From an uncultured Candidatus Saccharibacteria bacterium (lineage in GTDB: Bacteria; Patescibacteriota; Minisyncoccia; Phycocordibacterales; DATDWN01): DNA of 64,000 nt. The position numbers were made by a program, and so were the translations under genes. The stretch's first letter is position 1. Each line of letters opens with the position of its first letter. The notes below the pieces were generated by a model. It was not told the origin of the DNA and searched no databases. It saw only the letters and a list, made by a program, of their open reading frames with translations. Shown here piece after piece: positions 11,231 through 58,629 of the stretch. The stretch is from positions 5,459 to 69,458 of the forward strand of contig CAYXWL010000002.1 in the NCBI GenBank assembly GCA_964468795.1. The letters run 5' to 3'.

Positions 11231-12265
11231 TTATATCTTTGACTTGTCGTTCAAAATGAGATCTTGGTATATGTCTATTAGAGAAAAAAGCAGAGCCACA
11301 CTAACTGGTCCGAATATGAATCCCACTGGTCCAAAGAAAGCTATTCCGCCAAGGACCGCAAACAGCATGACAAGCTGATGTATTTCAGTGCCTTTTGAAT
11401 ACAGGTACGGAGCCAAAAAATTATCAATGCTGGATACCAGCAGCCCCCACCACGCCAGAAGGCCGATAGCCGAAGCAGTATCGCCTATGACATACATATA
11501 GGAAATTATAGGTATGAATACCAATGCTGTTCCAAAAGCAGGAACAAGCGAGGCAATAGCAGAAATAGCGCCCCACAAAGTCGGGTTTGGAACTCCAAAA
11601 ATCTTGAGACCGACCCCAGCCAAGAGTCCTTGGATAAGGGCAATAAGCAGAACGCCTTTTACTGTAGAGATAATGGACTGCTTCAGCTTTAGAATAATCA
11701 TCTCATCATACCTGTCCTTTAAAGGACTGAGATTTATTAAAATTTTCTTGAATTTTTCTCCATCTCGCAAGAAAAAGAAAAGAGAAAAGAATATGAAAAC
11801 TATGCTGGCCAATGTATCAAGCACTTGTCCCAATATTGTGGTTAAGTGATTAACAATATAGCCAGATGCCAACCTCAAGTACGAGCCGACATCAAGGTTA
11901 AAAAATGGATAATACTTTTGAATAGGCAGTTCTATCGCCGAAGTAATCCTCTGCAAGTAGTCTATCTCGCTCTGATTTGAAAACTTCCTGAACAAGTTTC
12001 CGGCTTCGTTAAATAATCCGGCCGAGAGCAGAAGGGTTGGCACTATTATCGTAAATATAAATATCATTACCACCAAAAAGGCAGCCCAGCCCTCTCTTCC
12101 TCCTAAGCGCCTTACCACATTTTTATATAATGGGTTTAGGACTACAGCTAGAATGCCTGCGAGTGCGATTACTTTCACAAAAGGCAGGAAAATAAAGAAA
12201 ATAAGCGTTGAAACAGCAAGCAGAAAACCTATGAAAAAATACCTCTGAATAGCGTCTCTTTCCAT
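11231..12265 (-). CDS. AI-2E family transporter (PerM/UPF0118).
   Basis: A 344-aa polytopic protein with the family-typical architecture. Confidence 0.75.
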   Translation of the reverse strand: MERDAIQRYFFIGFLLAVSTLIFFIFLPFVKVIALAGILAVVLNPLYKNVVRRLGGREGWAAFLVVMIFIFTIIVPTLLLSAGLFNEAGNLFRKFSNQSEIDYLQRITSAIELPIQKYYPFFNLDVGSYLRLASGYIVNHLTTILGQVLDTLASIVFIFFSLFFFLRDGEKFKKILINLSPLKDRYDEMIILKLKQSIISTVKGVLLIALIQGLLAGVGLKIFGVPNPTLWGAISAIASLVPAFGTALVFIPIISYMYVIGDTASAIGLLAWWGLLVSSIDNFLAPYLYSKGTEIHQLVMLFAVLGGIAFFGPVGFIFGPVSVALLFSLIDIYQDLILNDKSKI

Positions 12266-12277
12266 GACATAATTGTA

Positions 12278-12673
12278 CTACTTTGCTTCTTCCAAATCCA
12301 AGCAGACAGAATTCAGGCAATATCGCATTTTTGTTTCTGTCGGTCCATCATTAAACACATGACCCAAATGCGAACCGCATTTACTGCATACTACTTCTAC
12401 CCTATGCATGCCGTGAGAATAATCTCGAACTTCAACAACACTTCCGGGTATTGCCTTGTCGAAAGACGGCCATCCTGTCCCAGAATCAAACTTTGCTTCA
12501 GAAGAAAACAAATCTTGCCCGCAAACTTTGCATTTATATACGCCCGTTCTGTCATCATGCAATAGCTTGCCGGAAAAAGGCGCCTCTGTGCCTTTTTCAC
12601 GCAAAACTGAATACTCTTCGGCTGTCAGTTTTTTCTTCAGCTCATCTTCGCTATATTTTATTTTTGGTTCCAT
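12278..12673 (-). CDS. msrB: Peptide-methionine (R)-S-oxide reductase.
   Basis: Two CxxC zinc motifs and the catalytic RYCINS-like motif (MRYCLNSVCL). Confidence 0.9.
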   Translation of the reverse strand: MEPKIKYSEDELKKKLTAEEYSVLREKGTEAPFSGKLLHDDRTGVYKCKVCGQDLFSSEAKFDSGTGWPSFDKAIPGSVVEVRDYSHGMHRVEVVCSKCGSHLGHVFNDGPTETKMRYCLNSVCLDLEEAK

Positions 12674-12674
12674 A

Positions 12675-13232
12675 TTATTTTTTTGGATGATTTGCTAATA
12701 GATCTGCAAACTCTTTTTGAACTTTTTCTAGTTTAGGGTTTATGACAATTTGGCAATAAGGAGCTTCCCTGTTTCTCTCATAATATTCCTTGTGATAGTT
12801 CTCTGCAGGGTAAAACTCTTTTAAAGGCACAACCTCAGTTACTATTTTTCTACCATCGCTACTTTCATTATTCAGATCAGAGATGAATTTTTCAGAAATT
12901 TCTTTCTGCTCTGAAGTAGAATAGAAAATTATTGAACGGTACTGAGTGCCGACATCAGCTCCTTGCCTGTTTAATGTCGTAGGATCATGAGATCCAAAGA
13001 AAACCAGAAGCAAATCCCTAAAAGAGATCTGCTTTGGATCGAAATCAATTTTTATGCATTCCGCATGTCCTGTAGCTCCAGATGAAACCTCCTCATATGT
13101 TGGATTAGGAATACTTCCTCCGGAGTATCCTGGCTCTACAGAATAAACACCTCTTAGTATGTTGAAAACAGCCTCTGTGCACCAAAAGCACCCTCCTCCG
13201 AATACTACTATCTCGTGGCCGTTTTCTTCCAT
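12675..13232 (-). CDS. msrA: Peptide-methionine (S)-S-oxide reductase.
   Basis: GCFWC active-site motif. Confidence 0.9.
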   Translation of the reverse strand: MEENGHEIVVFGGGCFWCTEAVFNILRGVYSVEPGYSGGSIPNPTYEEVSSGATGHAECIKIDFDPKQISFRDLLLVFFGSHDPTTLNRQGADVGTQYRSIIFYSTSEQKEISEKFISDLNNESSDGRKIVTEVVPLKEFYPAENYHKEYYERNREAPYCQIVINPKLEKVQKEFADLLANHPKK

Positions 13233-13245
13233 AATTAACTCTTTG

Positions 13246-14370
13246 CTATTTCTTTATAACTCCAATCTTGTATGACTGTAAAATCCTGGTCGGATTGCTT
13301 TGTCCGCCATACTGATCGTTGAAAGCTGATGTTGCATCAACTCCGCACATAGACTTGATAGCTCCCTCTCCTCCAGGGTGCTTGCTTATCCACTTGGTTA
13401 AATCGTAAACTGAACCGCTTACAACTGAGTAACAGTTTGTTGTTAAATTGTGCTTTGATACTTCAGCCATTGTAAATGTCTGAGATGTAGTTGTGGCAGG
13501 CGCAACAGTAGCTGACGCTGAAGCTCCGACGGATAGCGTGGCCATTGGTGCTTCATCTCCTTCGTCTCCTTCATCATCATCATTCTCTTTCTCACCATAC
13601 GCATGATCATCCTGGCCCTCATTGTCCTTTCTTATTGTTGCAAAAGTTTTTGCCCTCGCGTTCTCACTGCCAGCAATTGCCAAGCCACCATTATCTTCCC
13701 CTTCTTCTTTATCGCCTTTTGCAAGCCTTACGACATCCAAAACGCCGATAGTAGTTGAAGATTTTGACGAATAGCCAGCTAGAATTTTTTCGTGATCATC
13801 CATCTCCTTTTTAAACTTTATCTTGACTTCGTCTGCTGTCTTGGTGTCGCCCTTGCTCTCTATTTTTGAAACTTGAGAATTGAAAGATTCTACTTCTTTA
13901 GAAAAATTAGTCTTGATTTCGCTATCTTGTTCTGCGGTGAGCTTTCCGCTTAGAGCCAAAGTCTCTGCCTCTGTCAGCCTCCTTACTGCCTGATTTAAAT
14001 CCACCATAGCGCTATCTTTCTCATTAAAAGCCAGCACTGATTGCATCTTTTCGTTTACATTCAGCTTAACTGGATAAAGTGCGTCACCTGGAAGAGACTT
14101 TTCAGCTAGGTAGCTTGTTCCTCCTCCAACAACAACCAAAAGCAAAAGTGCTGGAACTGCGATCTTGTATATAAATGATGACCATGCAAATGAGCTGGAT
14201 GTAGGAATATTGGTGCCAAAATTATTTTCCATATTATTTATTGATTTTATGCTTATTAAATTTGAAGATGCAAAATCAGCCACCCTGCCTCTGATGGCAT
14301 TTTTTTCCTCTGATGTCAGAGAAATTTTTTTTAGCTCTTCGATTGTTTTATCGCTATTATTCATATTCAT
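13246..14370 (-). CDS. Putative anti-sigma factor with one TM helix, a DUF5667-like extracytoplasmic region, an acidic linker and a C-terminal cytochrome b5-like heme-binding domain.
   Basis: The start overlaps the ECF sigma stop. There is a TM segment at about aa 65-90. The C-terminus reads TMAEVSKHN...YDLTKWISKHPGG...DATSAF, which is the cyt b5 signature. Confidence 0.65.
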   Translation of the reverse strand: MNMNNSDKTIEELKKISLTSEEKNAIRGRVADFASSNLISIKSINNMENNFGTNIPTSSSFAWSSFIYKIAVPALLLLVVVGGGTSYLAEKSLPGDALYPVKLNVNEKMQSVLAFNEKDSAMVDLNQAVRRLTEAETLALSGKLTAEQDSEIKTNFSKEVESFNSQVSKIESKGDTKTADEVKIKFKKEMDDHEKILAGYSSKSSTTIGVLDVVRLAKGDKEEGEDNGGLAIAGSENARAKTFATIRKDNEGQDDHAYGEKENDDDEGDEGDEAPMATLSVGASASATVAPATTTSQTFTMAEVSKHNLTTNCYSVVSGSVYDLTKWISKHPGGEGAIKSMCGVDATSAFNDQYGGQSNPTRILQSYKIGVIKK

Positions 14371-14857
14371 TGAATAATTCTTTTAACTTCTTAATCCCGC
14401 GATGCACGTGAACTGAAACCGTGTTTTCGCTTTCCCCAGTAATCTCGGCAATTTCAGATATATCCAGCTCATTTATATATCTCATCACCAAAGCAGATTT
14501 ATAGGGCTCGTCAATTTCATTTAAAAGAAGAATTGCCCTTTCGGCATCAAAACGCCTCTCTGCACTAGTAGGATCATCCGCTTTTGGATCAAAACCAGCT
14601 TCATGCATCTCATCGAGAGAAGTTTCCTTCTTCTTTCTGTACTCGTCGATTATTAAGTTGTTCAAAGTCCGATACAAAAAAGCCTTGAGGTTATTTATCT
14701 CATTGCCCTGAGCCATGTAGCCCCAAGTTTTTGTAAATGTATCCTGAAGAATATCCCTTGCCCTTTCCCTATCGTTTATTTTGAAATAGCAGTGCCTAAA
14801 TAAGGCATCTGCATGCTCATCGTAAGCTCTAAGAAAAGTTTGTGTCATATCCTCCAT
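14357..14857 (-). CDS. ECF-type sigma-70 family RNA polymerase sigma factor.
   Basis: Region 2 and region 4 (HTH: LDISEIAEITGESENTVSVHVHRGIKKLK) are both present. Confidence 0.85.
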   Translation of the reverse strand: MEDMTQTFLRAYDEHADALFRHCYFKINDRERARDILQDTFTKTWGYMAQGNEINNLKAFLYRTLNNLIIDEYRKKKETSLDEMHEAGFDPKADDPTSAERRFDAERAILLLNEIDEPYKSALVMRYINELDISEIAEITGESENTVSVHVHRGIKKLKELFNEYE

Positions 14858-14951
14858 ATGTAAAGACGAGTATAGATATAGCTTATTACAGTAGCCTTAT
14901 TGCATTATACAACAAAAAGTTCCATAAAATGAAACTCTAAAATCCGGCCTT

Positions 14952-16481
14952 TTAGACAAATCCAGGAAAGAAATCTATCTTAATCTGATTTCTAGGCACT
15001 CCCATCTTTTTGAGCTGATCTTCAAATGCAGTAACCATGCCGTGAGTCCCAGAAATATAGAACATTCTTTCCTTGTAATCTGGAACTTCATTCATTATCA
15101 TTTCTGAATTTATCATGCCCACCTTTGCTAATGGAAGCTGATTTTGATCAGTGGCATCATTCACTACATATACAGTTTTCATGCCAAAAGATCTTTCCGC
15201 TTCGTCAAAATATTCTTTGTAGACAACATCATGAACAGTCTTATTGGAAAAGAATAATGTGACTTCTCTTTTTTCTTGATTGTCAATCATGCTTTTTACC
15301 ATCGCTCTAAAAGGTGTGATGCCGATACCGCCCGCGATGAAAACCAATTTTTTTGAAGTATCTTGAGGAAGTGTAAAATCTCCGGCAAGTTGTGATGCGA
15401 TGATTTGGCTTCCAGGCTGAAGCGAGACTAGCTTATTTTTAAACGAGCTTGAATTTGGATAAAACTTTACGCCAAGCCTAACCCCTTCCTCTGTTGGAGA
15501 AGATGCGATAGTAAAATATCTTCTATTTCCTCTCAGATCAGGCTTGTCGTGGCCCAATGTCCACTCCAAATACTGGCCAGCTTTAAATTGAAGTCTGTTG
15601 CTATCAGAATTCAATATTTTCCAGACAAATTCGTACACATCTGCTGACAGCTTATTTTTTTCTTTTAGCTCAAGAAGGAGTCGCGCCCTAGGACTAGCTA
15701 AATAAGAGTACATATTGGCAATAAAAAGAGCCAATGCAGGAGAAGATGACAGAGGCCCTATACTAAAAACTAAGCTATAAAATAATCCTGAAAGTGAGCC
15801 GTAAATTATTTGCCGATTTCTTTGAGGCGGAGTGGTAAGAGGTTCAGTTAGTATTATTGTTCCGAAAAAGACCAGCGGGCCTGATACGAAAAGCTGATTT
15901 AAAGCTTCAATGGCAGATCCTCCGGACTTTGTTGCGGAAATAAGAGCTACAACTGTTGCAACTCCAGCAAAAATTCCAAACATCTGGAACCTTTTTACTT
16001 TCCTTAAAACTAGGAAGCCTAAAATTGAAACCGGCAGAAGCATAGCCATACTTCCCACCCACCATCCTGCCAAACCGCTCCCAAAGAGACTTAAGATTAC
16101 CAAGGTTATGGCCACAGGATTAAAAATGTGCTTCTTATTTATGGCAAAAATATATTTTGAGCCCATGGCTATGACTCCTGCCAGCAAAAAAATATTCAAA
16201 TCGTAAAATGAACTTATCGGTATCAAAGTAAAATAGAGAATGAGAGCAGTTATGAAAGAAGACTCCACGTTTGTCTGCACTTTAAATACCAGAGAAAAAA
16301 TCCAATTTGATACGTAGCACACAGATATAAGCACAAAGTAAGACAAAAGCATGGCGTAAGGAGAATAGTCCAAAATGCCTGTAAAACCTCCTATTAAAGA
16401 CAGCAAGAAAAGGATGGACAAGCCAAACAAGACAAGCTTGTACATTGTTATGCCATTCAAAAAATTATCAATATATTTCAT
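14952..16481 (-). CDS. Membrane oxidoreductase. A polytopic N-terminal domain (RnfD/NqrB-like or ferric-reductase-like) is fused to a C-terminal FNR-like FAD/NAD(P)-binding domain.
   Basis: About 8 TM segments. RRYFTIAS is the RxYS FAD motif and GGIGITP is the NAD-binding motif. Confidence 0.7.
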   Translation of the reverse strand: MKYIDNFLNGITMYKLVLFGLSILFLLSLIGGFTGILDYSPYAMLLSYFVLISVCYVSNWIFSLVFKVQTNVESSFITALILYFTLIPISSFYDLNIFLLAGVIAMGSKYIFAINKKHIFNPVAITLVILSLFGSGLAGWWVGSMAMLLPVSILGFLVLRKVKRFQMFGIFAGVATVVALISATKSGGSAIEALNQLFVSGPLVFFGTIILTEPLTTPPQRNRQIIYGSLSGLFYSLVFSIGPLSSSPALALFIANMYSYLASPRARLLLELKEKNKLSADVYEFVWKILNSDSNRLQFKAGQYLEWTLGHDKPDLRGNRRYFTIASSPTEEGVRLGVKFYPNSSSFKNKLVSLQPGSQIIASQLAGDFTLPQDTSKKLVFIAGGIGITPFRAMVKSMIDNQEKREVTLFFSNKTVHDVVYKEYFDEAERSFGMKTVYVVNDATDQNQLPLAKVGMINSEMIMNEVPDYKERMFYISGTHGMVTAFEDQLKKMGVPRNQIKIDFFPGFV

Positions 16482-16497
16482 ACAGATATAATACCAC

Positions 16498-17370
16498 CTA
16501 TCCTAAAAATAATTCAGCATTGAATCCATCAGATTTTTCTACCGAGTGATCGTCTTTCAATATAAGATACTCAAATTTAAAATAATCCTTCAATTTATCA
16601 GCGCTAACAAAATACAAACCCGTTGCCACCAAATCAGCCACAAGCGTGGTTTCTGCCAAAGTCCATACTGCAGTAATTCCTTCTGGAGATGACAATTTTT
16701 TCGGATCAATAACATGATGAAATCTCCCCCATTTTCGCCTATTTCCGGAAGATCCGCACAAACTCATATTTAGCAAAGGCACAACGCCTATCGCCTCGCT
16801 CATGTCTTCAGGATTTTCTAGCCCGACTCTAAGTGAATCCTTGGTGGCGTTTCTCTGGCGCATATCTCCGCCTGCATCAACGCAGTATGATGAGACTTGA
16901 TGAACTTCAAGTTTTTCAGAGACAATATCTACCAAGTAACCCTTTCCGCCTGCGCCAAAATCAAGCAGTGACGGCTTGATAATGCACAGAGTCGGAGCAA
17001 GCCAATTCATCGCCTCCTCCCAAGGCAAAGGAGAAACCATTTCATTTTCAACAAAAGAATATTCTGGATCATAGCCTGCCTGAACCATTACCTTGCCGAT
17101 AAGAGGAGTGACGAGACCGCCTGTTGCATCATACATTTTCTTGTAAGTCTTAAGCATCAGATCTGCATCTTCTGGCAAAGTATACCTACCCGGGGTAATT
17201 GACATTTCTGTCACCAATGAGTCTTTTCTGAATCTAGAATAAGTTTTATCAAAATCATTAATCCTAGCTCTTATCTCTTCAAGCAAAACAACCTCCTTTT
17301 CTTTTGGGAGGTTGTCTAGAATATCTATTTGCCAAAAAGTTCCTATTGCTTCGAACTCGAACTTTATCAT
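16498..17370 (-). CDS. apbE: FAD:protein FMN transferase (ApbE family).
   Basis: ApbE fold motifs (GGLVTPLIGK...DAGGD). Confidence 0.8.
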   Translation of the reverse strand: MIKFEFEAIGTFWQIDILDNLPKEKEVVLLEEIRARINDFDKTYSRFRKDSLVTEMSITPGRYTLPEDADLMLKTYKKMYDATGGLVTPLIGKVMVQAGYDPEYSFVENEMVSPLPWEEAMNWLAPTLCIIKPSLLDFGAGGKGYLVDIVSEKLEVHQVSSYCVDAGGDMRQRNATKDSLRVGLENPEDMSEAIGVVPLLNMSLCGSSGNRRKWGRFHHVIDPKKLSSPEGITAVWTLAETTLVADLVATGLYFVSADKLKDYFKFEYLILKDDHSVEKSDGFNAELFLG

Positions 17371-17374
17371 GTTT

Positions 17375-17854
17375 TTATGCCTTAGCCTCAGTCTTTATCT
17401 TTAAAAGAGCATCCATGAAGCCCTTAGGTGTAAGAGATGACCCAGAGATCTTTGTCACGGATATATCGCTTATTTTTTTACCAACAACGTAAGATTTGTA
17501 TCCTGAAATAAACTTGTTTTGATAGTTCTTTGATTCAGGCTTTATTGCCGTATTGATTACAGTTGCGTCTGCAACAACATCATTCTTTATAACGAGCTTC
17601 ACAGACAAACTTTCCACACCGCTAGGCACCTGATAAGTTCCAGATGCTTCATAAGTTCCATCCTTATAAGAAAGAGGGTTGGCAGAAGTGTTATCGCTAG
17701 GATTTTGAGTTGCAGGTACTTCCACAGGGTTTTGCGGACTAGAGATTGCTTGCTGTTTCTGTGAGTACTTGAAGTAGCCGAAATATGCAACTACAAGCAC
17801 TAGCACGATTACTGATATTTTTATCGCAGGATTGCTCTTTTTTTGTTCATCCAT
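17375..17854 (-). CDS. Membrane-anchored FMN-binding domain protein (FMN_bind; NqrC/RnfG-like).
   Basis: N-terminal TM anchor. The C-terminal FMN_bind region carries an SG[S/A][S/T] motif (TKISGSSLT) that could be an ApbE flavinylation site. Confidence 0.6.
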   Translation of the reverse strand: MDEQKKSNPAIKISVIVLVLVVAYFGYFKYSQKQQAISSPQNPVEVPATQNPSDNTSANPLSYKDGTYEASGTYQVPSGVESLSVKLVIKNDVVADATVINTAIKPESKNYQNKFISGYKSYVVGKKISDISVTKISGSSLTPKGFMDALLKIKTEAKA

Positions 17855-17921
17855 CTATTTTGCCAAATAATGTTAATTTAAAAATTATAATACACAAACC
17901 TTAAATATAAAACCTCCCAAA

Positions 17922-18314
17922 CTATGGCTCCAGATATAACTTTCCGGCGTTTTTCCACATCCTTTTGTGCATACTTTTCCTGTTTTCAAATATTCTATGC
18001 ACGTCGTTTGGAGACAAACCATTTTCCTGTAGAATCTGCTTCATTGTCTTTCCCTGCTTAAGCTCGCTCTGTACTAGCTCAGGATCAAGGCCTAGTTGCA
18101 ATGCAATGGCTCCTGCCCTGCTTTGAGTATTCCATCTCCTCATCATATGCATACCGCTATCAGCAGTAGATTGAGTATATGCCGGAGCTTTATCTGAGTA
18201 AGTTTCTGCCAGAGCAGTATTGCCGGCACTCATAATAAGCATACCCGCTACTATACCCGAACTAGCTCCTGCTAAAATGGCCTTTTTGACCCTCTTATAT
18301 CTTTTATTTTTCAT
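17922..18314 (-). CDS. Secreted hypothetical protein.
   Basis: Signal peptide. No family recognised. Confidence 0.4.
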   Translation of the reverse strand: MKNKRYKRVKKAILAGASSGIVAGMLIMSAGNTALAETYSDKAPAYTQSTADSGMHMMRRWNTQSRAGAIALQLGLDPELVQSELKQGKTMKQILQENGLSPNDVHRIFENRKSMHKRMWKNAGKLYLEP

Positions 18315-18390
18315 TATGAATATTAAGGTTTGTAAATTTTCCTATATTCATAACTACAACTGAAAATCTTTTTTATTTCATATAAAGAAA

Positions 18391-19110
18391 CTAGTAATTA
18401 TCCTCCAATCTGCCTACTCCATAAGCCCTTATTTCGCCATCTACAACTTCGCCCGCCACAAATACTTTTTCCCCAATCTGCAAAAAATCTGTAGTGCTTG
18501 CATGGCTCGGAAAGATAACTTTTATCGTCCTCCCTCCATCATCTTCTCTTAACGAGTTTAGCCTGATCTCAAATGTATTGCCGTAAAGCGAAGTTATTTG
18601 GCCCTGAAACACCCCTCCACGGCCGTTTGAGCGCCTAATGCCCTGATACATCGCGCCCATAAGAGGTAGCTTATCCTGCTCAGCTCTCTTCATCATTGAT
18701 GCATGGAAAGAATCAAAGTTAATCAATGTTGCAAGAGTTGAAATTAAAATGAGAGTGCCAAAAAACAAATAAATTACAGGACTATGATAAGCAAATTTGA
18801 ATTTCTTTAAAAGAGAATCGAATATTAAAAGAAAAAATAGGTCAATAAGCAAAATTAGCCAAGGAAAAACTATAAAGAAATGGTAAAGGCCCCTTCCACC
18901 AAAGCCCAATAGATAGTAATAGCCACCAGTTTTAACAGAAAAAAGTATATAACTGACAAGCAGAACAGATAATATGAACACAAAGAATGCGAATATTCCA
19001 AGAAGAGCTATTTGCAAGGCAAAGTAGAACTTCGGGCGCATTCTTATCTCGCCTGCCTCTATTTTGCTTAGCACTTTTTCTCTGATGTCTTGCATGGTTT
19101 CTTCTTTCAT
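18391..19110 (-). CDS. Polytopic membrane protein, putative anti-sigma factor partner.
   Basis: It lies immediately downstream of the ECF sigma gene with a 1-nt gap. Confidence 0.45.
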   Translation of the reverse strand: MKEETMQDIREKVLSKIEAGEIRMRPKFYFALQIALLGIFAFFVFILSVLLVSYILFSVKTGGYYYLLGFGGRGLYHFFIVFPWLILLIDLFFLLIFDSLLKKFKFAYHSPVIYLFFGTLILISTLATLINFDSFHASMMKRAEQDKLPLMGAMYQGIRRSNGRGGVFQGQITSLYGNTFEIRLNSLREDDGGRTIKVIFPSHASTTDFLQIGEKVFVAGEVVDGEIRAYGVGRLEDNY

Positions 19111-19111
19111 T

Positions 19112-19690
19112 TTATTTTTCTATATTCAATTTATCGTATTCCTGCTTCATCATTTCCTTGGCCCTCATTATTCTAACCCCAACAGTACCTATTGGTATCT
19201 GCAGAATTTCAGCGATTTCCTTATAGCTGAATTCCTCAATATAATATAGAACTAAAATTTCTCTGTACTTCGGATCAATTTTTGACAGAACCTTGTCTAC
19301 AACTTCTTTGACTTCTTTTTGCTCCCTCTCTCTGACGATGGGATCATCGTTTTCTGTCACCGTATGCGACAAGATAGTATCGAAATCGAACAAGTAAAGA
19401 GGGCTTAGAGCGTTCTTTTTTAGAGCATTAACATATGTGTTGTGCGCAATCCTATAAATCCAAGGAGAAAATCTTTGCGATGTGTTAAAGCTTTGTATGT
19501 TTTTGTACGTTTTTATGAAAACATCTTGCACAACATCCTCGATATTGTCCTTGTCGGAAAGAAATTTCCTGCCATATCGAAAAAGCTTTGGCTGATATCT
19601 TTCCATAAGAACGCCGAATTTTTCAGTATCCCCCTTTTGCACCATCTCTGCTAATTTTTCGTCAGAGAGATCTGACTCGCTATTGCTCAT
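19112..19690 (-). CDS. ECF-type sigma-70 family sigma factor (second copy).
   Basis: Regions 2 and 4 are present (EILVLYYIEEFSYKEIAEIL). Confidence 0.85.
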   Translation of the reverse strand: MSNSESDLSDEKLAEMVQKGDTEKFGVLMERYQPKLFRYGRKFLSDKDNIEDVVQDVFIKTYKNIQSFNTSQRFSPWIYRIAHNTYVNALKKNALSPLYLFDFDTILSHTVTENDDPIVREREQKEVKEVVDKVLSKIDPKYREILVLYYIEEFSYKEIAEILQIPIGTVGVRIMRAKEMMKQEYDKLNIEK

Positions 19691-19738
19691 CTCTCTACTA
19701 TACTACTACTACAAAAAAGCACCATTAAATATTCCAGA

Positions 19739-20206
19739 CTAGTTCATCTTTTCTACATGGAAAGTAACAACATAATCTTTCTGAGGAATCTCTCCGGCCT
19801 CTGAATGCTTTGCAGGCTTTACATCCTTGATCAAAATAGAGTATCCCTGAAATTCATAGGCAGTATAATCAGACACCATCTCCCTGTTTTCTTTAACTTT
19901 ATCTATTTCAAGCGCCACATTCAGCTTCACATTTCCTGCCTGGATGCACTCCACATCCGCAGGACACCTGCTGTCTTGACTTACCGATACAAATGCAACT
20001 TTTAAGTCTCCTGATACGGCCTTGTCTCCAACTTTCAGGACCAAATCTCTCGGCTTAGATGGAACGTATGGGCTTTCAACAACCTTGATATCTTTTATTT
20101 TTTGGAATTCTTTTCCAAAATAAAAAGCTGCTGCAAAAGTAAGTACAAATAAAATTACTGCCAAAAGCTTTGAATACCACGTTACCTTGTTCCATTCTAT
20201 AGTCAT
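19739..20206 (-). CDS. Membrane-anchored hypothetical protein.
   Basis: TM anchor. No family recognised. Confidence 0.4.
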   Translation of the reverse strand: MTIEWNKVTWYSKLLAVILFVLTFAAAFYFGKEFQKIKDIKVVESPYVPSKPRDLVLKVGDKAVSGDLKVAFVSVSQDSRCPADVECIQAGNVKLNVALEIDKVKENREMVSDYTAYEFQGYSILIKDVKPAKHSEAGEIPQKDYVVTFHVEKMN

Positions 20207-20264
20207 GATTTTAAATATAATAATAGCAAACTGTTAATGCTGGCTATTATTATATAAAATTTTT

Positions 20265-20885
20265 TTAAAATCCTAAATCTTCATTTACAAACACAATCAC
20301 GAACTCGCGACCCATCATTTTATTCTCTTTCTTTAAAATGAGAAGCTTGGAATACATGGTGCCGGGATACCCTACGCTTTTCATTCTCTGATCTTCAAGA
20401 GGTACCACGTATTCATCAATCCTCTTCATGGCCTCATCTAAATTTTTTGCAATTTTTTTAGTGCTTACTACTAGAATTATATGAGTAGAGGTGAAGGCTA
20501 GGTGCGGAAGCTGGCTACCTGTGTTTGAAGCCACTAGAACTTCGCCAGTTTCTGTAACTGCGTGTGCGGATCCTAGATAGTAATCCGAAAGCACAGATTC
20601 CTTTCTCAGCTTATTCTGCTTTTCCTTATCCTGTTCGGCTAAAATATTCGCATGGAGATTGTTCCATCCATGGTCGCCAGATTTTAAGTACTCTAAAAAA
20701 CCAATCTGATTGAGCGTGGTCGAGGCTCCGTTCATGACAGAGGAACCTTTTGGAATAAGACTCTTTATGGCTTCCATGGCTTCCTCCTTTGTCTCGACAG
20801 TCCTCACTATAAAACCGTTATCCTCTAAATTTTTAGTTGCAGTTAAGACAGAATCTGAACTGGCTAATTCAGCAAAATTTTTCAT
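20265..20885 (-). CDS. LUD domain (LutC/YkgG-like, DUF162) protein.
   Basis: GAS.T...G.L and E.G.V.V.S motifs typical of LUD domains. Confidence 0.55.
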   Translation of the reverse strand: MKNFAELASSDSVLTATKNLEDNGFIVRTVETKEEAMEAIKSLIPKGSSVMNGASTTLNQIGFLEYLKSGDHGWNNLHANILAEQDKEKQNKLRKESVLSDYYLGSAHAVTETGEVLVASNTGSQLPHLAFTSTHIILVVSTKKIAKNLDEAMKRIDEYVVPLEDQRMKSVGYPGTMYSKLLILKKENKMMGREFVIVFVNEDLGF

Positions 20886-35579: not shown

Positions 35580-36221
35580 CTAATTACACCTTCTATTATT
35601 AGCATTTCGTATAAGGAGCAGATCATCCATTGTAACCTGGCCATCAAAATCAACGTCTGTGTTAAATAAGCAAATTGCAGAAGTAGATCCTAGGCACAGC
35701 TGAGCATAACGTGCGTCTGCTGTATTAACAGATCTGTCATTATTTACATCATAAAGAAGAATATTGCCAGGGTCATTTGCCATAACAGTGACCCTATTAG
35801 AGTATTCAAGCTTCGTTTTTAGCAAATAAGACTGGCCATCTGGACATGTCTTGTACATATACATTCGCCAATTAGCAGGATCATTTGAAGGGTCCTTTGG
35901 CAAGGCTGATATATACCTACCAGAGACTAATCTATTCAAGCTTATGCCAGTGGCCCAGTTGCTAGAGCTTGGGAGATCTGTACATTTGACTGTTCCTCCG
36001 CTAGTAAAGCATTCATTTGAGGCAGTAACTGGATAAGAATTGTGATCAGAATAATATAGTTCAAGTGCCTGCTGGAAAGACTTTAGATCAAGTTTTCGTG
36101 AGGCATCTCTCTGCCTGACTCTGGCAAGCGACAAGCTGTTGTAGACGATTGATGATAATAGGCTAATTATAGAAATAACGACCAGTAGCTCTATTAACGT
36201 AAATCCTTTTGAATTTTTCAC
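35580..36221 (-). CDS. Type IV pilin/pseudopilin (prepilin N-terminal methylation motif) with a C-terminal dockerin-like tandem repeat.
   Basis: KGFTLIELLVVISIISLL at the N-terminus. The C-terminus carries DVNNDRSVNTADARYAQL and DVDFDGQVTMDDLLLI, which are dockerin type I-like Ca-binding repeats. Confidence 0.75.
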   Translation of the reverse strand: MKNSKGFTLIELLVVISIISLLSSIVYNSLSLARVRQRDASRKLDLKSFQQALELYYSDHNSYPVTASNECFTSGGTVKCTDLPSSSNWATGISLNRLVSGRYISALPKDPSNDPANWRMYMYKTCPDGQSYLLKTKLEYSNRVTVMANDPGNILLYDVNNDRSVNTADARYAQLCLGSTSAICLFNTDVDFDGQVTMDDLLLIRNANNRRCN

Positions 36222-36366
36222 GGTAAGTGTAGATAATGAATATGCTTTTATATTAACAAATTAAAATATACGTGCCTAGTAAACTTATCCTTGTTTATCA
36301 TGTTTCTTTTTATTCAAAATCAATACATAGCAAAAAGTCTAAAAAAGTGTAATATTATGAGCACAT

Positions 36367-36440
36367 TGGGGGATCGTCTAACGGTAGGACATCAGGTTTT
36401 GGTCCTGAGTATCGGGGTTCGAGTCCCTGTCCCCCAGCCA
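36367..36440 (+). tRNA. tRNA-Gln (anticodon UUG), CCA-encoded.
   Basis: The cloverleaf was folded by hand: acceptor TGGGGGA/TCCCCCA, D stem GTCT/GGAC, anticodon stem TCAGG/CCTGA with loop TTTTGGT, T arm CGGGG-TTCGAGT-CCCTG. Confidence 0.85.
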
Positions 36441-36532
36441 GCTTGAGATAGTTTCGGACTCCGAGGAGGGTCGCGAAATGGCTCAAGTACCTATTCTGAC
36501 ATCGCATACCTGCTGAGCGCAGTATTCAAGAA

Positions 36533-36566
36533 AGAAAAAGCACCAAATTAGGTGCTTTTTCTTTCT
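36533..36566 (+). terminator. Rho-independent terminator after the tRNA.
   Basis: aaaaagcacc-aaatta-ggtgctttttc. Confidence 0.6.
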
Positions 36567-36609
36567 CTTCAAAAATCAAGCTAAAACTGGTATAGTTTAG
36601 ATATTATTT

Positions 36610-37104
36610 ATGAAAATAAAATCTCAGTTCGCTGATAAGGAAGGAAAATTAGCAGAAGTTACATATGAAGATGCTAATTCATTTGATCATCTTTTAGACA
36701 AGAAAGTGACGCAAACATATGGTGTCTGTTTTGTCGAAAATAAAATAGTTATTGTTTACAGTATAAAAGGTGGTGGTCACTGGATTCTCCCAGGCGGAAG
36801 TATTGAAAAAGGAGAAACTTTTGAAGAATGTCTAAAAAGAGAAATTCGAGAAGAATCAAACATGGAGGTTATTTCTTTTGCTCCAATTGGGTATCAGGAA
36901 GTTCGCTTTGATGGAAAGATATTTAATCAATTACGCTATATTTGTATAGTGAAGCCTTATGGAGATTTTATTTCTGATCCGGACGGAAGTATTACTGAAA
37001 TAAAACTAATTGATCCAAAGGAATACAAACAATATTTTGATTGGGGTGAGATCGGAGAAAGAATTATAGAAAGAGCGATAGAACTTAAGAATAAATTAGT
37101 ATAA
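36610..37104 (+). CDS. NUDIX hydrolase.
   Basis: Nudix box GGSIEKGETFEECLKREIREESNM. Confidence 0.8.
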   Translation: MKIKSQFADKEGKLAEVTYEDANSFDHLLDKKVTQTYGVCFVENKIVIVYSIKGGGHWILPGGSIEKGETFEECLKREIREESNMEVISFAPIGYQEVRFDGKIFNQLRYICIVKPYGDFISDPDGSITEIKLIDPKEYKQYFDWGEIGERIIERAIELKNKLV

Positions 37105-37111
37105 TAAAATC

Positions 37112-37615
37112 ATGGAAATAAAATCTCAATTCAAAAGTCGTAATGGAGAAATGATTGATTATGTATACAGAGAAGGCTCTGATCCAATAGAAGGATTAGA
37201 AGGAAAAATTCTACAGGCCGTTCATGGCTTTTGTTTTTATGGAGATAAGTTAGTTGTGGTATATGCAGGCGACAAAGGTTACTGGACATTTCCTGGTGGA
37301 GGCATAGAACCAGGAGAAACATGGCAAGAAGCCACAGTTAGAGAAGTAAAAGAAGAATCAAATATGAAAGTGCTACATCAAGAATTGATTGGTTATATAG
37401 ATGTATATGAAAAAGATAGAATCATACGACAAACCAGATCACTCTGCATTGTCGAACCATATGGAGATTTTGTTTCTGACCCAGATGTAGATATCACAGA
37501 GATCAAGCTGGTTGACCCTAAAGATTATGGACAGTATGTAAAATGGGGTGAAATTGGAGATCATATTGTTAAACGAGCTTTAGAAATACGGAGCAAGTAT
37601 AATGGATTAATATAA
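37112..37615 (+). CDS. NUDIX hydrolase, a tandem paralog of the previous gene.
   Basis: Nudix box GGGIEPGETWQEATVREVKEESNM. The two proteins are collinear and about 45% identical. Confidence 0.8.
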   Translation: MEIKSQFKSRNGEMIDYVYREGSDPIEGLEGKILQAVHGFCFYGDKLVVVYAGDKGYWTFPGGGIEPGETWQEATVREVKEESNMKVLHQELIGYIDVYEKDRIIRQTRSLCIVEPYGDFVSDPDVDITEIKLVDPKDYGQYVKWGEIGDHIVKRALEIRSKYNGLI

Positions 37616-37619
37616 TCAT

Positions 37620-38903
37620 ATGAAAAAACATATTATAATAGCAACATATGATGGAATAGGTACTCATTATTCAGGTGTTGGTACAATTGCAAAAAATATC
37701 ATATCTTCTCTAACTGATATATCAAATAGTTTAGATATGAAAGTTAGTATTGCTTATATTAATATTGATAAAACATCAAAAGTATTTAATAAAGACTGTT
37801 TTGAGGCAGCAAATAATCTTGTAAATAAAACTGGCGGGCAGATGATACCTTTGTGTAATTCTACTAAAGGTCAGAGTGAATGGGATATGTGGAGAAGTTT
37901 TAATGAATGGAATTTTTCTTGTGTATCTCTCGTTACAACCTTGAATTTGCTTCTAAAAGAGGATGAGGATAATGTCATTATTTTAAATGACACACCTTTT
38001 TTATTTTTTGCTAAGTATAGAGATTTAGTTACAGTTAAGAATTTGAAATGTTTTTATTTTCCACTCAGTACTGGTAAAAACCATGCTTTTGGTGATGAAG
38101 ATTGGAGAAATAATAGAATAAGAGTTGAAAAAAAATGTTTCGAACTAATTGAGTTAGAAAAGGATTCGAAAGTAATATCTCTTGGTAAAAAATTTGCAGA
38201 ACGCATGCACGAAGATTACGGACTTAATTTTAATGAAAAAGATTATTTACAAAATGGTTTATGTTTTGAAAAGTACAGGGATTTTCTTGATGAAAAATTT
38301 AATAACAAGGATCTTCTAAAATTTGGAATAGATATTAGTGAGGACAAAAAAATAATCTTTGCATGGGGGCGATGTTCTACTGCTAAAGGTTTTAAAGAAT
38401 TGGCACAGGCTTGGGTTCTTGCACACATAAGCCTACCAGATCATTTTTTAGTTTTGCAAATACCGAATAATTCTGGAGAGAATGAATATTTTCAAGAAGT
38501 AAAAAATATCTTAAGTGATATACCTAGAGTCATAATTATTGATGATTTTAATCCAAGTATTTGGAAAACAATCTTGAGAAATAAAAATACAGATGTTGTG
38601 TGTATACCTTCACTAATGGATCCATTCCCTCACACCTCAATTGAAGCAAAACTTTTTTCAAAGGATATGAATTATATAACATTGATTAGTGATGTTGATG
38701 GAGCAGTAGACGCCTTTGAAAAGGATGAGTGCTTTTATGTTGATCCCAGAAACAGTGATCAATTTTCTAAAAAGATAATTGAAGCAGTAAATCTAAATTA
38801 CTCTGAGAGGAGAAAACTAATTGAAAGAAGTGACAAAACTAGGGAAAAATTTAATTTTCATAAAATAATGTCCTCTTTCATCAAAGATAATCTTAATTGG
38901 TGA
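37620..38903 (+). CDS. Glycosyltransferase, GT-B fold (family 4/1-like).
   Basis: The C-terminal IPSLMDPFPHTSIEA matches the GT4 PS..E.FG...EA signature. Confidence 0.55.
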   Translation: MKKHIIIATYDGIGTHYSGVGTIAKNIISSLTDISNSLDMKVSIAYINIDKTSKVFNKDCFEAANNLVNKTGGQMIPLCNSTKGQSEWDMWRSFNEWNFSCVSLVTTLNLLLKEDEDNVIILNDTPFLFFAKYRDLVTVKNLKCFYFPLSTGKNHAFGDEDWRNNRIRVEKKCFELIELEKDSKVISLGKKFAERMHEDYGLNFNEKDYLQNGLCFEKYRDFLDEKFNNKDLLKFGIDISEDKKIIFAWGRCSTAKGFKELAQAWVLAHISLPDHFLVLQIPNNSGENEYFQEVKNILSDIPRVIIIDDFNPSIWKTILRNKNTDVVCIPSLMDPFPHTSIEAKLFSKDMNYITLISDVDGAVDAFEKDECFYVDPRNSDQFSKKIIEAVNLNYSERRKLIERSDKTREKFNFHKIMSSFIKDNLNW

Positions 38904-39643
38904 TGAAAATTAGACTTAATAATGTAACATTGCTGGGGATAGATTGTGTTAACCCAAAACAACTGTTAACTGCAATTAATATTTCTACAAGTAAGATAGA
39001 TTTTGAGTCTGTTAAGATTTTATCATCAGAGAATATTAATGATAGTAGACTAGTGAAAATTCCAAAGATATCCTCCATGCAAGAGTATTCGTTGTTTTGT
39101 TTAAAAGATTTGTATAAATATGTCGAAACAGATTTTGTTCTACTTATTCAATGGGACGGATTCATCCTAAATCCAGAAAGTTGGACTGATGAGTTTCTAA
39201 ATTACGACTACATTGGCGCACCCTGGGTCGTAAAAGATTGGTCTATAAATGATTTTGGATTTCCAGAAAAATTGAGGGGCACACGCGTTGTTGGTAATGG
39301 AGGTTTTTGTATTAGGAGTAGAAAATTTCTTGAAGTTTCGTCTAGGTTATATAAGTATAAAATATTCAAAACTTATCATCCAGAAGATATAGCGGTGAGT
39401 GTTTGGTATAGAGATTTATTTATTAAAGAAGGGATCAAGTTTGCTCCTGTAGAATTGGCTAGAAAGTTCGCTATTGAAGGAGGTGATGATGTGTACCACA
39501 ATCAATTTGGTTTTCATGGGTTTTACACAGATTTGGACAAATGGATGAATGAAAATAAGCAATATATGAATGTTGTTCAGTCTTATTATGATTTTAAAAA
39601 GAATATAAAAAAATATTGGAAGCCTGATGAAATAGTAATTTAA
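38897..39643 (+). CDS. DUF5672-like protein, commonly found in glycan-synthesis clusters.
   Basis: VVGNGGFCIRSRKFL motif. Assigned from memory. Confidence 0.4.
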   Translation: MVMKIRLNNVTLLGIDCVNPKQLLTAINISTSKIDFESVKILSSENINDSRLVKIPKISSMQEYSLFCLKDLYKYVETDFVLLIQWDGFILNPESWTDEFLNYDYIGAPWVVKDWSINDFGFPEKLRGTRVVGNGGFCIRSRKFLEVSSRLYKYKIFKTYHPEDIAVSVWYRDLFIKEGIKFAPVELARKFAIEGGDDVYHNQFGFHGFYTDLDKWMNENKQYMNVVQSYYDFKKNIKKYWKPDEIVI

Positions 39644-39712
39644 TCCAGTAAAACATTATTAGATAGAAAATCAAGAAATCTAAAAACATTTTTACTGTGT
39701 TATAATACTAAA

Positions 39713-40459
39713 ATGATTTTTCGGTGGTCCATTTGGGGTGATCATATTTCAAAAAATATAGAGCTACTGCAGTACAGCATAGCTTCTTTTCAGAAGTATT
39801 TTGGAAACAATAACCAATACATTATTTATACAGATAATATAGAGTTTGTTACAAAGTATTTTGATTCAAGTATAATTGTAAAACTCTTTTTACAAGACTC
39901 CGTATTTTTTTTAAAATCAAAAGCTACGTGGATGAAATGGTGTCCAAGTGTAAGGTTAGATTTAAGGGAAACGGAGGTATATGTAGATTCAGATGTTTTC
40001 CTTTTAAAATATCCGAAAGAAATTGATGGTTTTATAAATGATCCACAGTTGAAATTTGCAATAATGGATGAATTTAATGGGCAGTCCTGGCAACATGGTG
40101 CAATGGCACGTAAATCAACAAATCAAACTCCTTTTGTTAATGCTGGTTTTTTTATTCAGAAATCAGGTTGCGACATAACACAAGATTTACTAAGTGAATT
40201 TGAGTGGTGGAAGCAAAATGTGCCAACAAATGAACAAACTCATCATGATGAGCAAGGTGCATTAGCAGTAGCACTTACAGACCATTTAATTAATGGTGAA
40301 TTGTGTATTTTACCAAAAGATAAGTATGTGCTAATTGGTCCAAATGAAAATCAGGAAATAAAAAACCTCGAAAATATTACTATGTTTCATGCTGTATATC
40401 CGGATCATCCAGCCTTCTACAAATTCAAGAATTATCTTGATGATTTACTAAAAGAGTAA
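39713..40459 (+). CDS. Putative nucleotide-diphospho-sugar transferase with a DxD motif.
   Basis: YVDSDVFLL. Confidence 0.35.
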   Translation: MIFRWSIWGDHISKNIELLQYSIASFQKYFGNNNQYIIYTDNIEFVTKYFDSSIIVKLFLQDSVFFLKSKATWMKWCPSVRLDLRETEVYVDSDVFLLKYPKEIDGFINDPQLKFAIMDEFNGQSWQHGAMARKSTNQTPFVNAGFFIQKSGCDITQDLLSEFEWWKQNVPTNEQTHHDEQGALAVALTDHLINGELCILPKDKYVLIGPNENQEIKNLENITMFHAVYPDHPAFYKFKNYLDDLLKE

Positions 40460-40479
40460 GTTCAAAATTTTCGTTATAA

Positions 40480-42189: not shown

Positions 42190-43205
42190 CTGACTCAGAA
42201 ATGAAAATAAAATTATCCTATATAACAGGTTTGAAGCCTGTGGTTTTAGATGAATTAAAAAAAATTAATTTTGAAATAATTAGTGAAGATACCGATTCAT
42301 TTTTTATCGAATTTTCAGAAAAGGTCATACAACAAGTAAAAAAGCTAAGGAGTGTAGCTCGTGTGTATCTAGTTATGCAAGGCGATACATATCACCCGAC
42401 ATATATTTCAAACCATAAGTCCGTTTTAGCTGGTCTTATTAATATGGTTATTGAGTACTATGACTTCAAGACATTCAAAATTAGCTGTGCCGGGTCTGAT
42501 TCGCCTGAAGTTAGAAGTATTGCAAGATATATACGAGATACCTATATACTGGAGGAAAATGACGAGGCAGACTTAAAGATACATATTATAAAACTAGATA
42601 GTGGTTGGGAGATGGGTGTACAAATAACCCCACGTCCTCTTTCAGTGAGAGATTATAGAGTTGTTAATATGAGTGGAGCAATGGATCCAACAATAGCATA
42701 TGCAGTAAATTCTTTTTGCAATCTTGATTCAGCACATTCGTATTTGAATATATTTTCGGGCAGTGCAACTTTATTAATTGAGGCGGGACAATGTTATCCA
42801 AACTTGAACAAATTACTTGGTTTTGATAATGAAAAGAAACATCTGTCCTTGTCTGTTCAAAACATTAAAAAGGCAGGTCTTATAGAAAGAGTTCAAGTGA
42901 AGGAATTGGATATTTTTGATAAGCCAGACCTAGGTAAATTTGATGCTATTGCCTCTGATTTACCTTTCGGTATGTCAATTTTAAAAGGTGAAGATCTAGA
43001 AAAACTATACGAAACTTTTATTCAATATTGTGAGGATGTGTTAAATACTACTGGTAGATTGGTTGTCTATACTAGCGAATATGAAATCATTGAACCTATT
43101 CTACTTAAGTCTAAATTCAAAATAATTCAGTCATTACAGTTAAAATTTATAACTAATGTAGATGCGTATTTAAGACCCAAGATAATTGTTTGTGAATTCA
43201 AATAA
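42186..43205 (+). CDS. THUMP-like / UPF0020 family SAM-dependent methyltransferase (N2-G/N6-A RNA methylase-like).
   Basis: FSGSATLLIEAG is the SAM motif I-like region; ASDLPFG is the D/NPPY-type catalytic motif. Confidence 0.55.
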   Translation: MTDSEMKIKLSYITGLKPVVLDELKKINFEIISEDTDSFFIEFSEKVIQQVKKLRSVARVYLVMQGDTYHPTYISNHKSVLAGLINMVIEYYDFKTFKISCAGSDSPEVRSIARYIRDTYILEENDEADLKIHIIKLDSGWEMGVQITPRPLSVRDYRVVNMSGAMDPTIAYAVNSFCNLDSAHSYLNIFSGSATLLIEAGQCYPNLNKLLGFDNEKKHLSLSVQNIKKAGLIERVQVKELDIFDKPDLGKFDAIASDLPFGMSILKGEDLEKLYETFIQYCEDVLNTTGRLVVYTSEYEIIEPILLKSKFKIIQSLQLKFITNVDAYLRPKIIVCEFK

Positions 43206-43207
43206 AT

Positions 43208-58436: not shown

Positions 58437-58587
58437 AAAACTACCGATTCGTCGCATACTCGCATTAGGTCTTAGCAAAATAACTAACCTGCGATACGAT
58501 TGGAATTAGAGAACAAAATAGAGTATCATGTTCTTAACAATTTAATAGATAGCCTAACCCCTTGTATTCCAAGGATATGGCTAAAAT

Positions 58588-58629
58588 CCGTTCAAAGTAG
58601 AAAGCTCTTCGTCAGAGCACTTTGAACGG
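58588..58629. repeat. Nested inverted repeat ccgttcaaagt...gctct-tcgtc-agagc...actttgaacgg. Further direct copies of ccgttcaaag lie at 58588 and 58707.
   Basis: Direct reading of the sequence. Confidence 0.6.

Follow-up and report, generated by a model that had tools for sequence, protein, structure and literature searches.

A probable NQR/RNF-like flavin electron conduit and its leaderless ApbE in a Candidatus Saccharibacteria genome

We analysed a window of 64,000 nucleotides from an uncultured Candidatus Saccharibacteria bacterium (GCA_964468795.1, contig CAYXWL010000002.1, positions 5,459 to 69,458 of the forward strand), in which three adjoining open reading frames (ORFs) occupy 17854..14952 on the minus strand. 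In this order, they encode a membrane-anchored 159-aa protein with a flavin mononucleotide (FMN)-binding fold, an ApbE-family flavin transferase, and a 509-aa fusion of an RnfD/NqrB-like membrane domain with an FNR-type reductase domain (Table 1), and they probably form a transmembrane electron conduit together with the enzyme that matures it. The first gap measures 4 nt and the second 16 nt. A first-pass annotation, made from the letters of the window, had proposed a co-directional and tightly spaced triad of this kind, and its ORFs, their spacing and the identities that it gave to the proteins were borne out, as was its expectation that the triad is kept in relatives, where we found it across five phyla. 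The motifs that it quoted were located as well (SGSS and ISAT, Table 1; RRYFTIAS, 15501-15524; GGIGITP, 15312-15332). The module is genuine and cleanly delimited, and it belongs to the already published NQR/RNF-like class; because this class of systems was described in 2021, the first-pass annotation overestimated its novelty. The module lies inside a long co-directional array (from approximately 20206 to 11231) in which all gaps are 94 nt or shorter. A promoter and terminator scan of 12000-20500 gave counts equal to the shuffled expectation and did not inform the operon boundaries, and an Rfam scan found neither an FMN riboswitch nor any other element near the module.

Table 1. Features of the flavin module and of its neighbours, in window positions
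Feature	Position	Strand	Remark
ECF (extracytoplasmic function) sigma factor, 192 aa	19112..19690	-	Sigma70_r2 + r4_2 domains
Polytopic membrane protein, 239 aa	18391..19110	-	at least 3 hydrophobic segments; 1 nt after sigma gene
Small secreted protein, 130 aa	17922..18314	-	signal-peptide-like N-terminus; Met/His motif GMHMMH/RWN
FMN-binding-fold subunit (NqrC/RnfG-like), 159 aa	17375..17854	-	ORF
Flavinylation motif S137-G138-S139-S140 (predicted)	17435..17446	-	within block G-S-S-L-T-P-K-G-F
ApbE-family FAD (flavin adenine dinucleotide):protein FMN transferase, 290 aa	16498..17370	-	PF02424
Complete fusion ORF, 509 aa	14952..16481	-	
RnfD/NqrB-like membrane domain, fusion residues 1-265	15687..16481	-	
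'ISAT', fusion residues 181-184	15930..15941	-	not a functional motif
FNR-type FAD/NAD(P)H-binding reductase domain, fusion residues 268-509 + stop codon	14952..15680	-	
Downstream ECF sigma factor	14357-14857	-	Pfam
Anti-sigma-like protein, DUF5667 + Cyt-b5 domains	13246-14370	-	Pfam
msrA	12675-13232	-	Pfam
msrB	12278-12673	-	Pfam

The membrane domain of the fusion protein matched PF03116 (NQR2_RnfD_RnfE) with 29.9 bits, above the cut-off of 27.7, and the reductase part matched FAD_binding_6 (PF00970, E=1.5e-5) and NAD_binding_1 (PF00175, E=3.1e-15), with NAD_binding_6 below threshold (20.3 vs 22.2 bits). A reading of the membrane domain as a ferric reductase was rejected, as there was no match to PF01794. 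As to NADH or NADPH as donor, the reductase part holds an 'SNKT..D' segment that may resemble those of NADH-specific b5 reductases. An AlphaFold2 model of the single, ligand-free chain, made with 94 homologues, was confident (pLDDT, the predicted local distance difference test, 91.2; pTM, the predicted template modelling score, 0.83), and the helix boundaries taken from this model delimited 11 loops. Lysine plus arginine residues per loop, averaged over the 94 homologues, alternated in the manner of the positive-inside rule (in order, 1.30, 0.04, 0.64, 0.09, 2.16, 0.01, 3.72, 0.19, 1.79, 0.06 and 2.11). The domain is thus predicted from the model to have ten helices, with its N- and C-termini inside and loop 133-144 outside, and because the alternating counts place both termini inside, the FNR domain would be cytoplasmic, as the first-pass annotation had supposed.

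Alignment with MAFFT showed the membrane domain to be colinear with Escherichia coli RsxD over its full length, with N-x-S, F-N-P, W, (R/Q)-K, L-T-(D/E)-P and P-R as common landmarks; a profile comparison (hhalign) in which only the C-terminal half aligned was superseded by this result. The residues T212-E213-P214 are invariant and keep the acidic residue of the RnfD 'TDP' motif. A loop of approximately 70 residues in RsxD (~141-212, DGISQAT187PLD) has no counterpart between W140 and W141 of the fusion, and the site of this deletion is the outward loop 133-144. Because the flavinylated loop of RnfD is deleted, the membrane domain is expected to have no covalent-FMN site of its own. A second flavinylation motif had been proposed at 'ISAT', and we rejected this as a chance match, since the residues lie in the least conserved stretch, lack the Gly of [ST]GA[ST], and have no homology to the loop in which RnfD has its flavinylated Thr.

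The 159-aa protein consists of an N-terminal membrane anchor (residues ~10-31), a low-complexity linker rich in Ser, Thr, Pro and Asn (residues 32-61), and an FMN_bind-fold domain (residues 62-159). Searches by sequence failed to link the family to solved structures or to RsxG, a profile search of the PDB returning noise only, and a fold search was therefore needed; it recovered the FMN-binding-domain fold. Among 48 close homologues, 15 matched PF04205 (FMN_bind), the best with E=2.3e-7. Near the C-terminus lies a [S/T]-G-[A/S]-[S/T] motif with a conserved hydroxyl, in which the first position (S137) varies among S, G, A and N, and G138, S139 and S140, followed by L141, P143, G145 and F146, are invariant in the 48 sequences. 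In a sister subtype, the place of the GSSLTPKGF block in the alignment is taken by the classical V-S-G-A-T motif, the T of which falls opposite S140 (codon 17435-17437). Because the block is both invariant and aligned in this way, S140 is the predicted acceptor of the FMN phosphoester; the conservation of Ser and Thr that the first-pass annotation had asked to be checked was found in the SGSS motif and not in ISAT.

The one N-terminal hydrophobic segment of the 159-aa protein may serve as an anchor or as a signal. Lys and Arg were richer on the N-terminal flank of the anchor in 56 of 105 homologues and on the C-terminal flank in 16, and lipoboxes (e.g. ..LAGC, ..VTGC) occur in the homologues of actinobacterial loci L075 and L078-L085, and in L023. 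Because of this anchor with its charge bias, and the lipoboxes of the homologues, the flavin-binding domain is predicted to be extracytoplasmic. Three of the actinobacterial lipoprotein precursors have twin-arginine-like n-regions (L079, 6591-7094, TRRRTLG; L084, 5175-5702, PRRFPF; L085, 6403-7050, HRRALT), which would fit export by the twin-arginine translocation (Tat) pathway after flavinylation in the cytoplasm. The twin-arginine motif was lacking in the homologues of the remaining Actinobacteria and in all those of the candidate phyla radiation (CPR).

The ApbE protein matched PF02424 with E=4.4e-32. Among solved structures, E. coli ApbE (4xgw, E=2.3e-15) comes closest to it, and the alignment with this protein begins at residue 5 and shows that the FAD/Mg-site motifs GKGY, HHVIDP (H-V-I-D-P) and A-D-x-x-x-T are kept. 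We judged the leaders of ApbE and of the FMN-binding partner by inspection of hydrophobic segments and motifs. By this measure, signal peptide, lipobox and transmembrane segment are all lacking in the window ApbE, and an upstream extension of its ORF is not possible. It begins 4 residues before the first conserved strand (3-10 residues in the loci of relatives), and the only hydrophobic windows among the ApbEs of the family were two marginal ones, both inside that strand. The N-terminal signal peptide or lipobox that marks a canonical extracytosolic ApbE is thus missing. Canonical ApbEs are secreted lipoproteins, and the substrates known for cytosolic ones are all cytoplasmic (PMC12052999). 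The term 'extracytosolic flavinylation', which the first-pass annotation had used, is put in question by an enzyme that lacks an export signal in the window and in all relatives alike. The descriptions of the NQR/RNF-like system that we cite do not discuss a leaderless cognate ApbE. It is possible that flavinylation takes place in the cytoplasm before export, that ApbE is targeted in an unconventional way, or that the genome holds a second ApbE gene at another place.

Homologues of the fusion protein number in the thousands, mostly named from Patescibacteria, and it was present in at least 459 species in one scan of species-representative genomes. With the loop-less membrane domain alone as query, 315 clusters at 50% identity reached E<=1e-30, and most were fusions of 480-520 aa. 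ORF calling and iterated profiles were then applied to a set of 87 non-redundant loci. The order FMN-binding gene, ApbE, fusion was found on one strand in 72 of the 74 loci that hold all three genes; these come from Patescibacteria, Chloroflexota (including Ktedonobacteria), Alphaproteobacteria (Mesorhizobium/Kaistia), Actinobacteria (Microbacteriaceae/Arthrobacter) and Spirochaetota. In the relative P0022 (L090, 5431-6720), a transposase gene (Transposase_20, a weak match) stands between the ApbE and fusion genes and splits the module. Two subtypes were evident, type A with an SGAT motif and an ApbE of ~248 aa that starts MKxTRILMGMPITVE, and type B, to which the window belongs, with a GSSLT motif and an ApbE of ~290 aa that starts FEAIGTxWxID. 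Motif and enzyme were paired as A-A in 35 cases and B-B in 25, with one apparent mismatch, and from this co-variation we argue that each ApbE has co-evolved with its substrate.

Taken with the synteny, the folds and the invariant motif, these features suggest that the locus probably encodes a two-subunit NQR/RNF-like transmembrane electron conduit and its dedicated flavin transferase. NAD(P)H would reduce the FAD of the cytoplasmic FNR domain, and the electrons would then cross the membrane through the RnfD/NqrB-fold domain, probably on a non-covalent flavin at the riboflavin/FMN site of NqrB/RnfD. They would reach, at the outer face, an FMN bound as a phosphoester to Ser140 of the anchored 159-aa protein, on which ApbE would have installed it from FAD, and this FMN would pass them to an extracytoplasmic acceptor. 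Because the RnfD-like domain lacks the covalent-FMN loop, the tethered flavin of the partner presumably docks in the vacated pocket on the outer face. A single NAD(P)H-to-outside conduit derived from Nqr/Rnf, as the first-pass annotation described it, is also the published reading of this architecture (PMC8238504, PMC11334425). No homologue of RsxA, B, C, E or G was found in any frame of the window (phmmer, E. coli queries, E<=10), and the neighbouring genes, as annotated with Pfam, include no further Nqr or Rnf subunit.

Several observations weigh against this interpretation. Electron flow, cofactors and acceptor are all assigned by homology, and we found no experimental characterisation of any member of the NQR/RNF-like system in the literature. 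The 159-aa protein itself scored 13.8 bits with PF04205, against a cut-off of 22 bits, and profile comparison of the family with E. coli RsxG (hhalign) gave a probability of 1.3%, which is not significant. The export signal of ApbE is absent in all of the approximately 80 related loci, and a leaderless enzyme is hard to square with flavinylation, outside the cell, of an exported domain. In seven loci (L007, L025, L047, L054, L061, L066 and L069) the fusion gene has at least 5 kb of upstream sequence but neither the FMN-binding nor the ApbE gene close to it, and the system may there exist in an orphan form or in another arrangement. Finally, clustering of the flanking ORFs yielded no family-wide acceptor gene, but only two-component systems, ABC ATPases and antisense artefacts.

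Upstream of the module, the ECF sigma gene opens an array of six genes (sigma factor, membrane protein, small protein, FMN-binding protein, ApbE and fusion) that recurs in the contigs of P0012, P0007, P0013, P0016 and P0022, which belong to a clade of Parcubacteria, and is rearranged in L058, where the sigma gene is divergent. This sigma factor is the likely regulator of the module. The 239-aa membrane protein is conserved alongside the sigma gene and had no direct Pfam match; an iterated profile of its C-terminal domain recruited DUF5666 (PF18914) proteins, and we regard it as a candidate anti-sigma factor with a DUF5666-like C-terminal domain. Three distant CPR loci also have a small DUF5666 protein that adjoins the module (L026, 9589-10047; L040, 6180-6626; L068, 6330-6737). 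The 130-aa secreted protein lies directly upstream of the FMN-binding gene in the Parcubacteria clade and keeps this position in L004, L087, L088, L090 and L091. An alignment of seven homologues showed its GMHMMH/RWN motif and an LGLD..ELKSGKT.KQILQENG segment to be conserved, and no family could be assigned to it. It is a candidate partner or acceptor of the module and may bind metal. The upstream sigma, 239-aa and 130-aa genes are more faithful companions of the module than the genes downstream, which (12278..14857) are co-directional context outside the conserved core. In alphaproteobacterial, actinobacterial and spirochaetal loci (L031-L052 and others), the module is flanked by a histidine kinase in 21 loci and by an OmpR-type response regulator in 17, and small PepSY-like proteins also flank it in seven Mesorhizobium loci.

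The missing leader could be explained if ApbE modified Ser140 in the cytoplasm, before or during export, in a one-step variant of the conduit, and this we take seriously without favouring it. The modified chain would leave by Tat in some Actinobacteria and by Sec/YidC in CPR bacteria, with the adduct tolerated, and FAD would stay in the cell. Such a route agrees with the leaderless and inextensible ApbE ORFs of every locus, with partners that are exported (as lipoproteins in L075, L078-L085 and L023), and with the twin arginines of the three actinobacterial signal peptides; ApbE is also said, from work with flavin tags, to accept short peptide tags. It is less easily reconciled with the N-termini of the CPR and most other FMN-binding proteins, which have no such arginines, and we know of no precedent for Sec export of a flavinylated chain. 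Cytosolic ApbEs do exist, for example for the fumarate reductase of Klebsiella, whereas the periplasmic ApbE of Salmonella could not be replaced by cytosolically expressed ApbE (PMC12052999). It is also conceivable, and in our view unlikely, that the module serves metal reduction, for either assimilation or detoxification. The outward FMN would then reduce Fe(III) or Cu(II), which the secreted Met/His-rich protein may present. VIT1 ferrous-iron transporters are present in 6 of 127 NQR/RNF-like clusters, and several flavinylated systems have been tied to iron reduction (Méheust et al., PMC8238504). Further support comes from the GMHMMH/RWN protein, which directly precedes the FMN-binding gene in six Parcubacteria contigs and in L058, and from the PepSY-like small proteins and two-component systems that flank the module in alphaproteobacterial and other loci. 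However, the window has no metal transporter adjoining the module. The Met/His motif is a short one in a protein of no assigned family, and this protein is specific to a clade rather than family-wide.

The first-pass annotation had seen the module as feeding or sensing a circuit of envelope oxidative repair that would also involve the ECF sigma factor encoded downstream, the anti-sigma protein with its cytochrome-b5 domain, and MsrA/MsrB, and we consider such a circuit improbable. The genes concerned are co-directional, with gaps no longer than those of the array as a whole (<=94 nt), the FNR domain resembles cytochrome-b5 reductases, and the b5 domain lies on the C-terminal side of the only transmembrane segment of its protein, which predicts an extracytoplasmic position for it. 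The msrA-msrB pair directly follows the fusion gene in P0013, P0016 and P0074, lies within 7 kb of it in P0022 and P0052, and is also found within 8 kb in the more distant loci L017, L027 and L066. However, these three are the only ones among 80 species-level loci (L006-L085), a frequency little above chance for genomes of ~1 Mb. The whole downstream region, including genes for a DEAD helicase, PdaC, VTT and exonuclease VII, is syntenic in the same Parcubacteria clade, and the adjacency may thus be inherited gene order; we conclude that it is clade-level synteny and that msrA-msrB is not a family-wide partner. MsrA and MsrB have no signal peptide and therefore cannot draw electrons from a flavin outside. 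Apart from the window, just one close relative (L090) has a protein with Cyt-b5 and DUF5667 domains near the module; the pair of ECF sigma and DUF5667/Cyt-b5 genes adjoins it only in near-identical contigs, the b5 protein standing alone in L090, and in the window this pair looks inserted between the module and msrAB. The b5 domain of the window has the HPGG motif, and the expected second axial His is replaced by Tyr (QYGG), where the L090 homologue has His (QHGG). Recurrent Cyt-b5 neighbours elsewhere were rejected, as the iterated profile that indicated them was contaminated by DUF5667, and L032 and L041 were shown by alignment to share DUF5667 only. Another improbable reading is that the RnfD-like domain is no wire, but a channel, a transporter or a redox-driven Na+/H+ pump, with the flavins gating or energising transport. 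NqrB and RnfD are indeed parts of ion-translocating complexes, and the acidic residue of 'TDP' is retained in the fusion. Against this, the NqrD/E or RnfA/E subunits, with their intramembrane Fe-S centre, are absent, a terminal electron acceptor would still be required, no transport-related gene is conserved nearby, and systems that deliver electrons outward typically have a covalent FMN on an outward domain (PMC8238504). We give very little credence to a specific form of such pumping, in which the tethered FMN and the RnfD/NqrB-like core make a minimal two-protein cation pump that couples NADH-to-outside flow to export of Na+ or H+ by way of the NqrB-like domain, in which the T-(D/E)-P acidic site is retained. 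If it were true, Patescibacteria, which have no respiratory chains, could build a membrane potential, and the leaderless ApbE would be part of the same adaptation, in which flavin is attached inside and FAD export is unneeded.

The conduit that we consider probable would be of wider interest because the NQR/RNF-like class is widespread, particularly in Patescibacteria, a group with a poorly understood energy and redox metabolism. Among the transmembrane electron conduits that have been proposed in bacteria, a flavin wire of two proteins from NAD(P)H to the outside is about the simplest, and it would lend itself well to the study of electron movement by NqrB/RnfD-type domains. Solving the paradox of a leaderless ApbE with an exported substrate would show whether exported proteins can be flavinylated in the cytoplasm. 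The present analysis sharpens the targets for such work, namely Ser140, the deleted RnfD loop as the likely docking pocket, the two pairs of ApbE and motif, and the candidate secreted partner.

Elsewhere in the window, we noted a LOOT RNA (Rfam RF03000) at 58551-58667 on the plus strand, which scored 79.6 bits over the full model length, against a gathering score of 46.4 bits. At tRNA-Gln(ttg) (36367-36440, plus strand), the guanine-cytosine (GC) content falls from ~0.39 to 0.30-0.34, the GC skew changes sign and the coding strand turns plus. The region (~36300-44000) contains two tandem NUDIX-like paralogues (36610-37104 and 37112-37615) and several glycosyltransferase-like ORFs, and may be a surface-glycan island; no dnaA was seen. 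An ORF at 35580-36221 on the minus strand has a type IV pilin-like N-terminus (GFTLIELLVVISIISLL).

Among known systems, the module resembles the Na+-NQR of Vibrio cholerae (NqrA-F) in a small subunit like NqrC and in ApbE as the maturation enzyme. However, the window has no NqrA, NqrD or NqrE, no NqrF 2Fe-2S domain and no quinone site, the covalent-FMN loop of NqrB is deleted, and the NqrF-like domain is fused directly to the NqrB-like one. Ion pumping by the module would be hypothetical, and electron flow in it is proposed to be one-way and outward, not semicircular. With Rnf (RnfD/RnfG; E. coli RsxD/RsxG; 7ZC6, 8AHX) it shares the FNP and T(D/E)P motifs and the order of the helices, but RnfA, B, C and E are lacking in the window, as is the RsxD loop (~141-212) with T187, and the donor would be NAD(P)H through the fused FNR domain instead of ferredoxin through RnfB/C. 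The other membrane and Fe-S subunits that define Na+-NQR and Rnf proper are thus absent.

The extracellular electron transfer (EET) system of Listeria (Ndh2, EetA/B, DmkA/B, FmnA/FmnB and PplA) offers a parallel, since its ApbE-family FmnB flavinylates the surface FMN-binding protein PplA, which reduces extracellular acceptors with cytoplasmic NADH. The membrane step in Listeria is made by Ndh2 and a quinone rather than by an RnfD-FNR fusion, and none of its EET genes is present in the window. FmnB and PplA are both lipoproteins, and FAD is exported by a dedicated energy-coupling factor (ECF) transporter (PMC9973259). MsrQ-like and PepSY-like proteins with a C-terminal PF00175 domain, and NOX/FRE ferric reductases, likewise combine a polytopic domain with a cytoplasmic FNR-type domain and send electrons outward, and their genes in bacteria often lie beside apbE and FMN_bind genes. 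They differ in having two b haems in a PF01794- or PepSY-type domain, where the module has a flavin-type RnfD fold, and the fusion has no haem-binding transmembrane domain of the PF01794 type. The cytoplasmic ApbE of Klebsiella pneumoniae is similar in having no signal peptide (PMC12052999). Its target, however, is a soluble cytoplasmic fumarate reductase, and that of the module is membrane-anchored and predicted to face outward.

The closest match is to the NQR/RNF-like system itself, for which Méheust et al. (2021, eLife, PMC8238504) gave an operational definition, namely that a PF03116+PF00175 fusion lies within a flavinylation gene cluster, and proposed this architecture and mechanism. An AlphaFold-multimer model of the complex from Ktedonobacter racemifer was presented by Huang et al. 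(2024, mSystems), who noted that the NqrB/RnfD flavinylation site is not conserved in the membrane subunit and suggested that the tethered flavin of the partner samples the non-covalent site of that subunit (PMC10979944, published as PMC11334425). The window fits the operational definition. An N-terminal NqrB/RnfD domain (PF03116) and a C-terminal NqrF-type PF00175 domain are joined in one protein, which stands within five genes of the ApbE and NqrC/RnfG-like FMN-binding genes (16 nt, then 4 nt, upstream), and the flavinylated Thr is lost with the SQAT187 loop of RsxD; in both cases the system occurs in CPR bacteria and Actinobacteria. Unlike the Ktedonobacteria-type systems, with SGAT and an ApbE of ~248 aa, the window has a type B pair (GSSLTPKGF and an ApbE of ~290 aa). 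Its FMN-binding protein is missed by PF04205, and its ApbE has no signal peptide. The window cluster may have escaped the published screen because that screen required a signal-peptide or PF04205-type call. The family is larger than the 127 clusters published, extending to the species and sequence clusters counted above. What the present analysis adds to a known class is the explicit loop deletion, the two co-evolving subtypes, this larger family, the clade-specific companions and the paradox of the leaderless ApbE.

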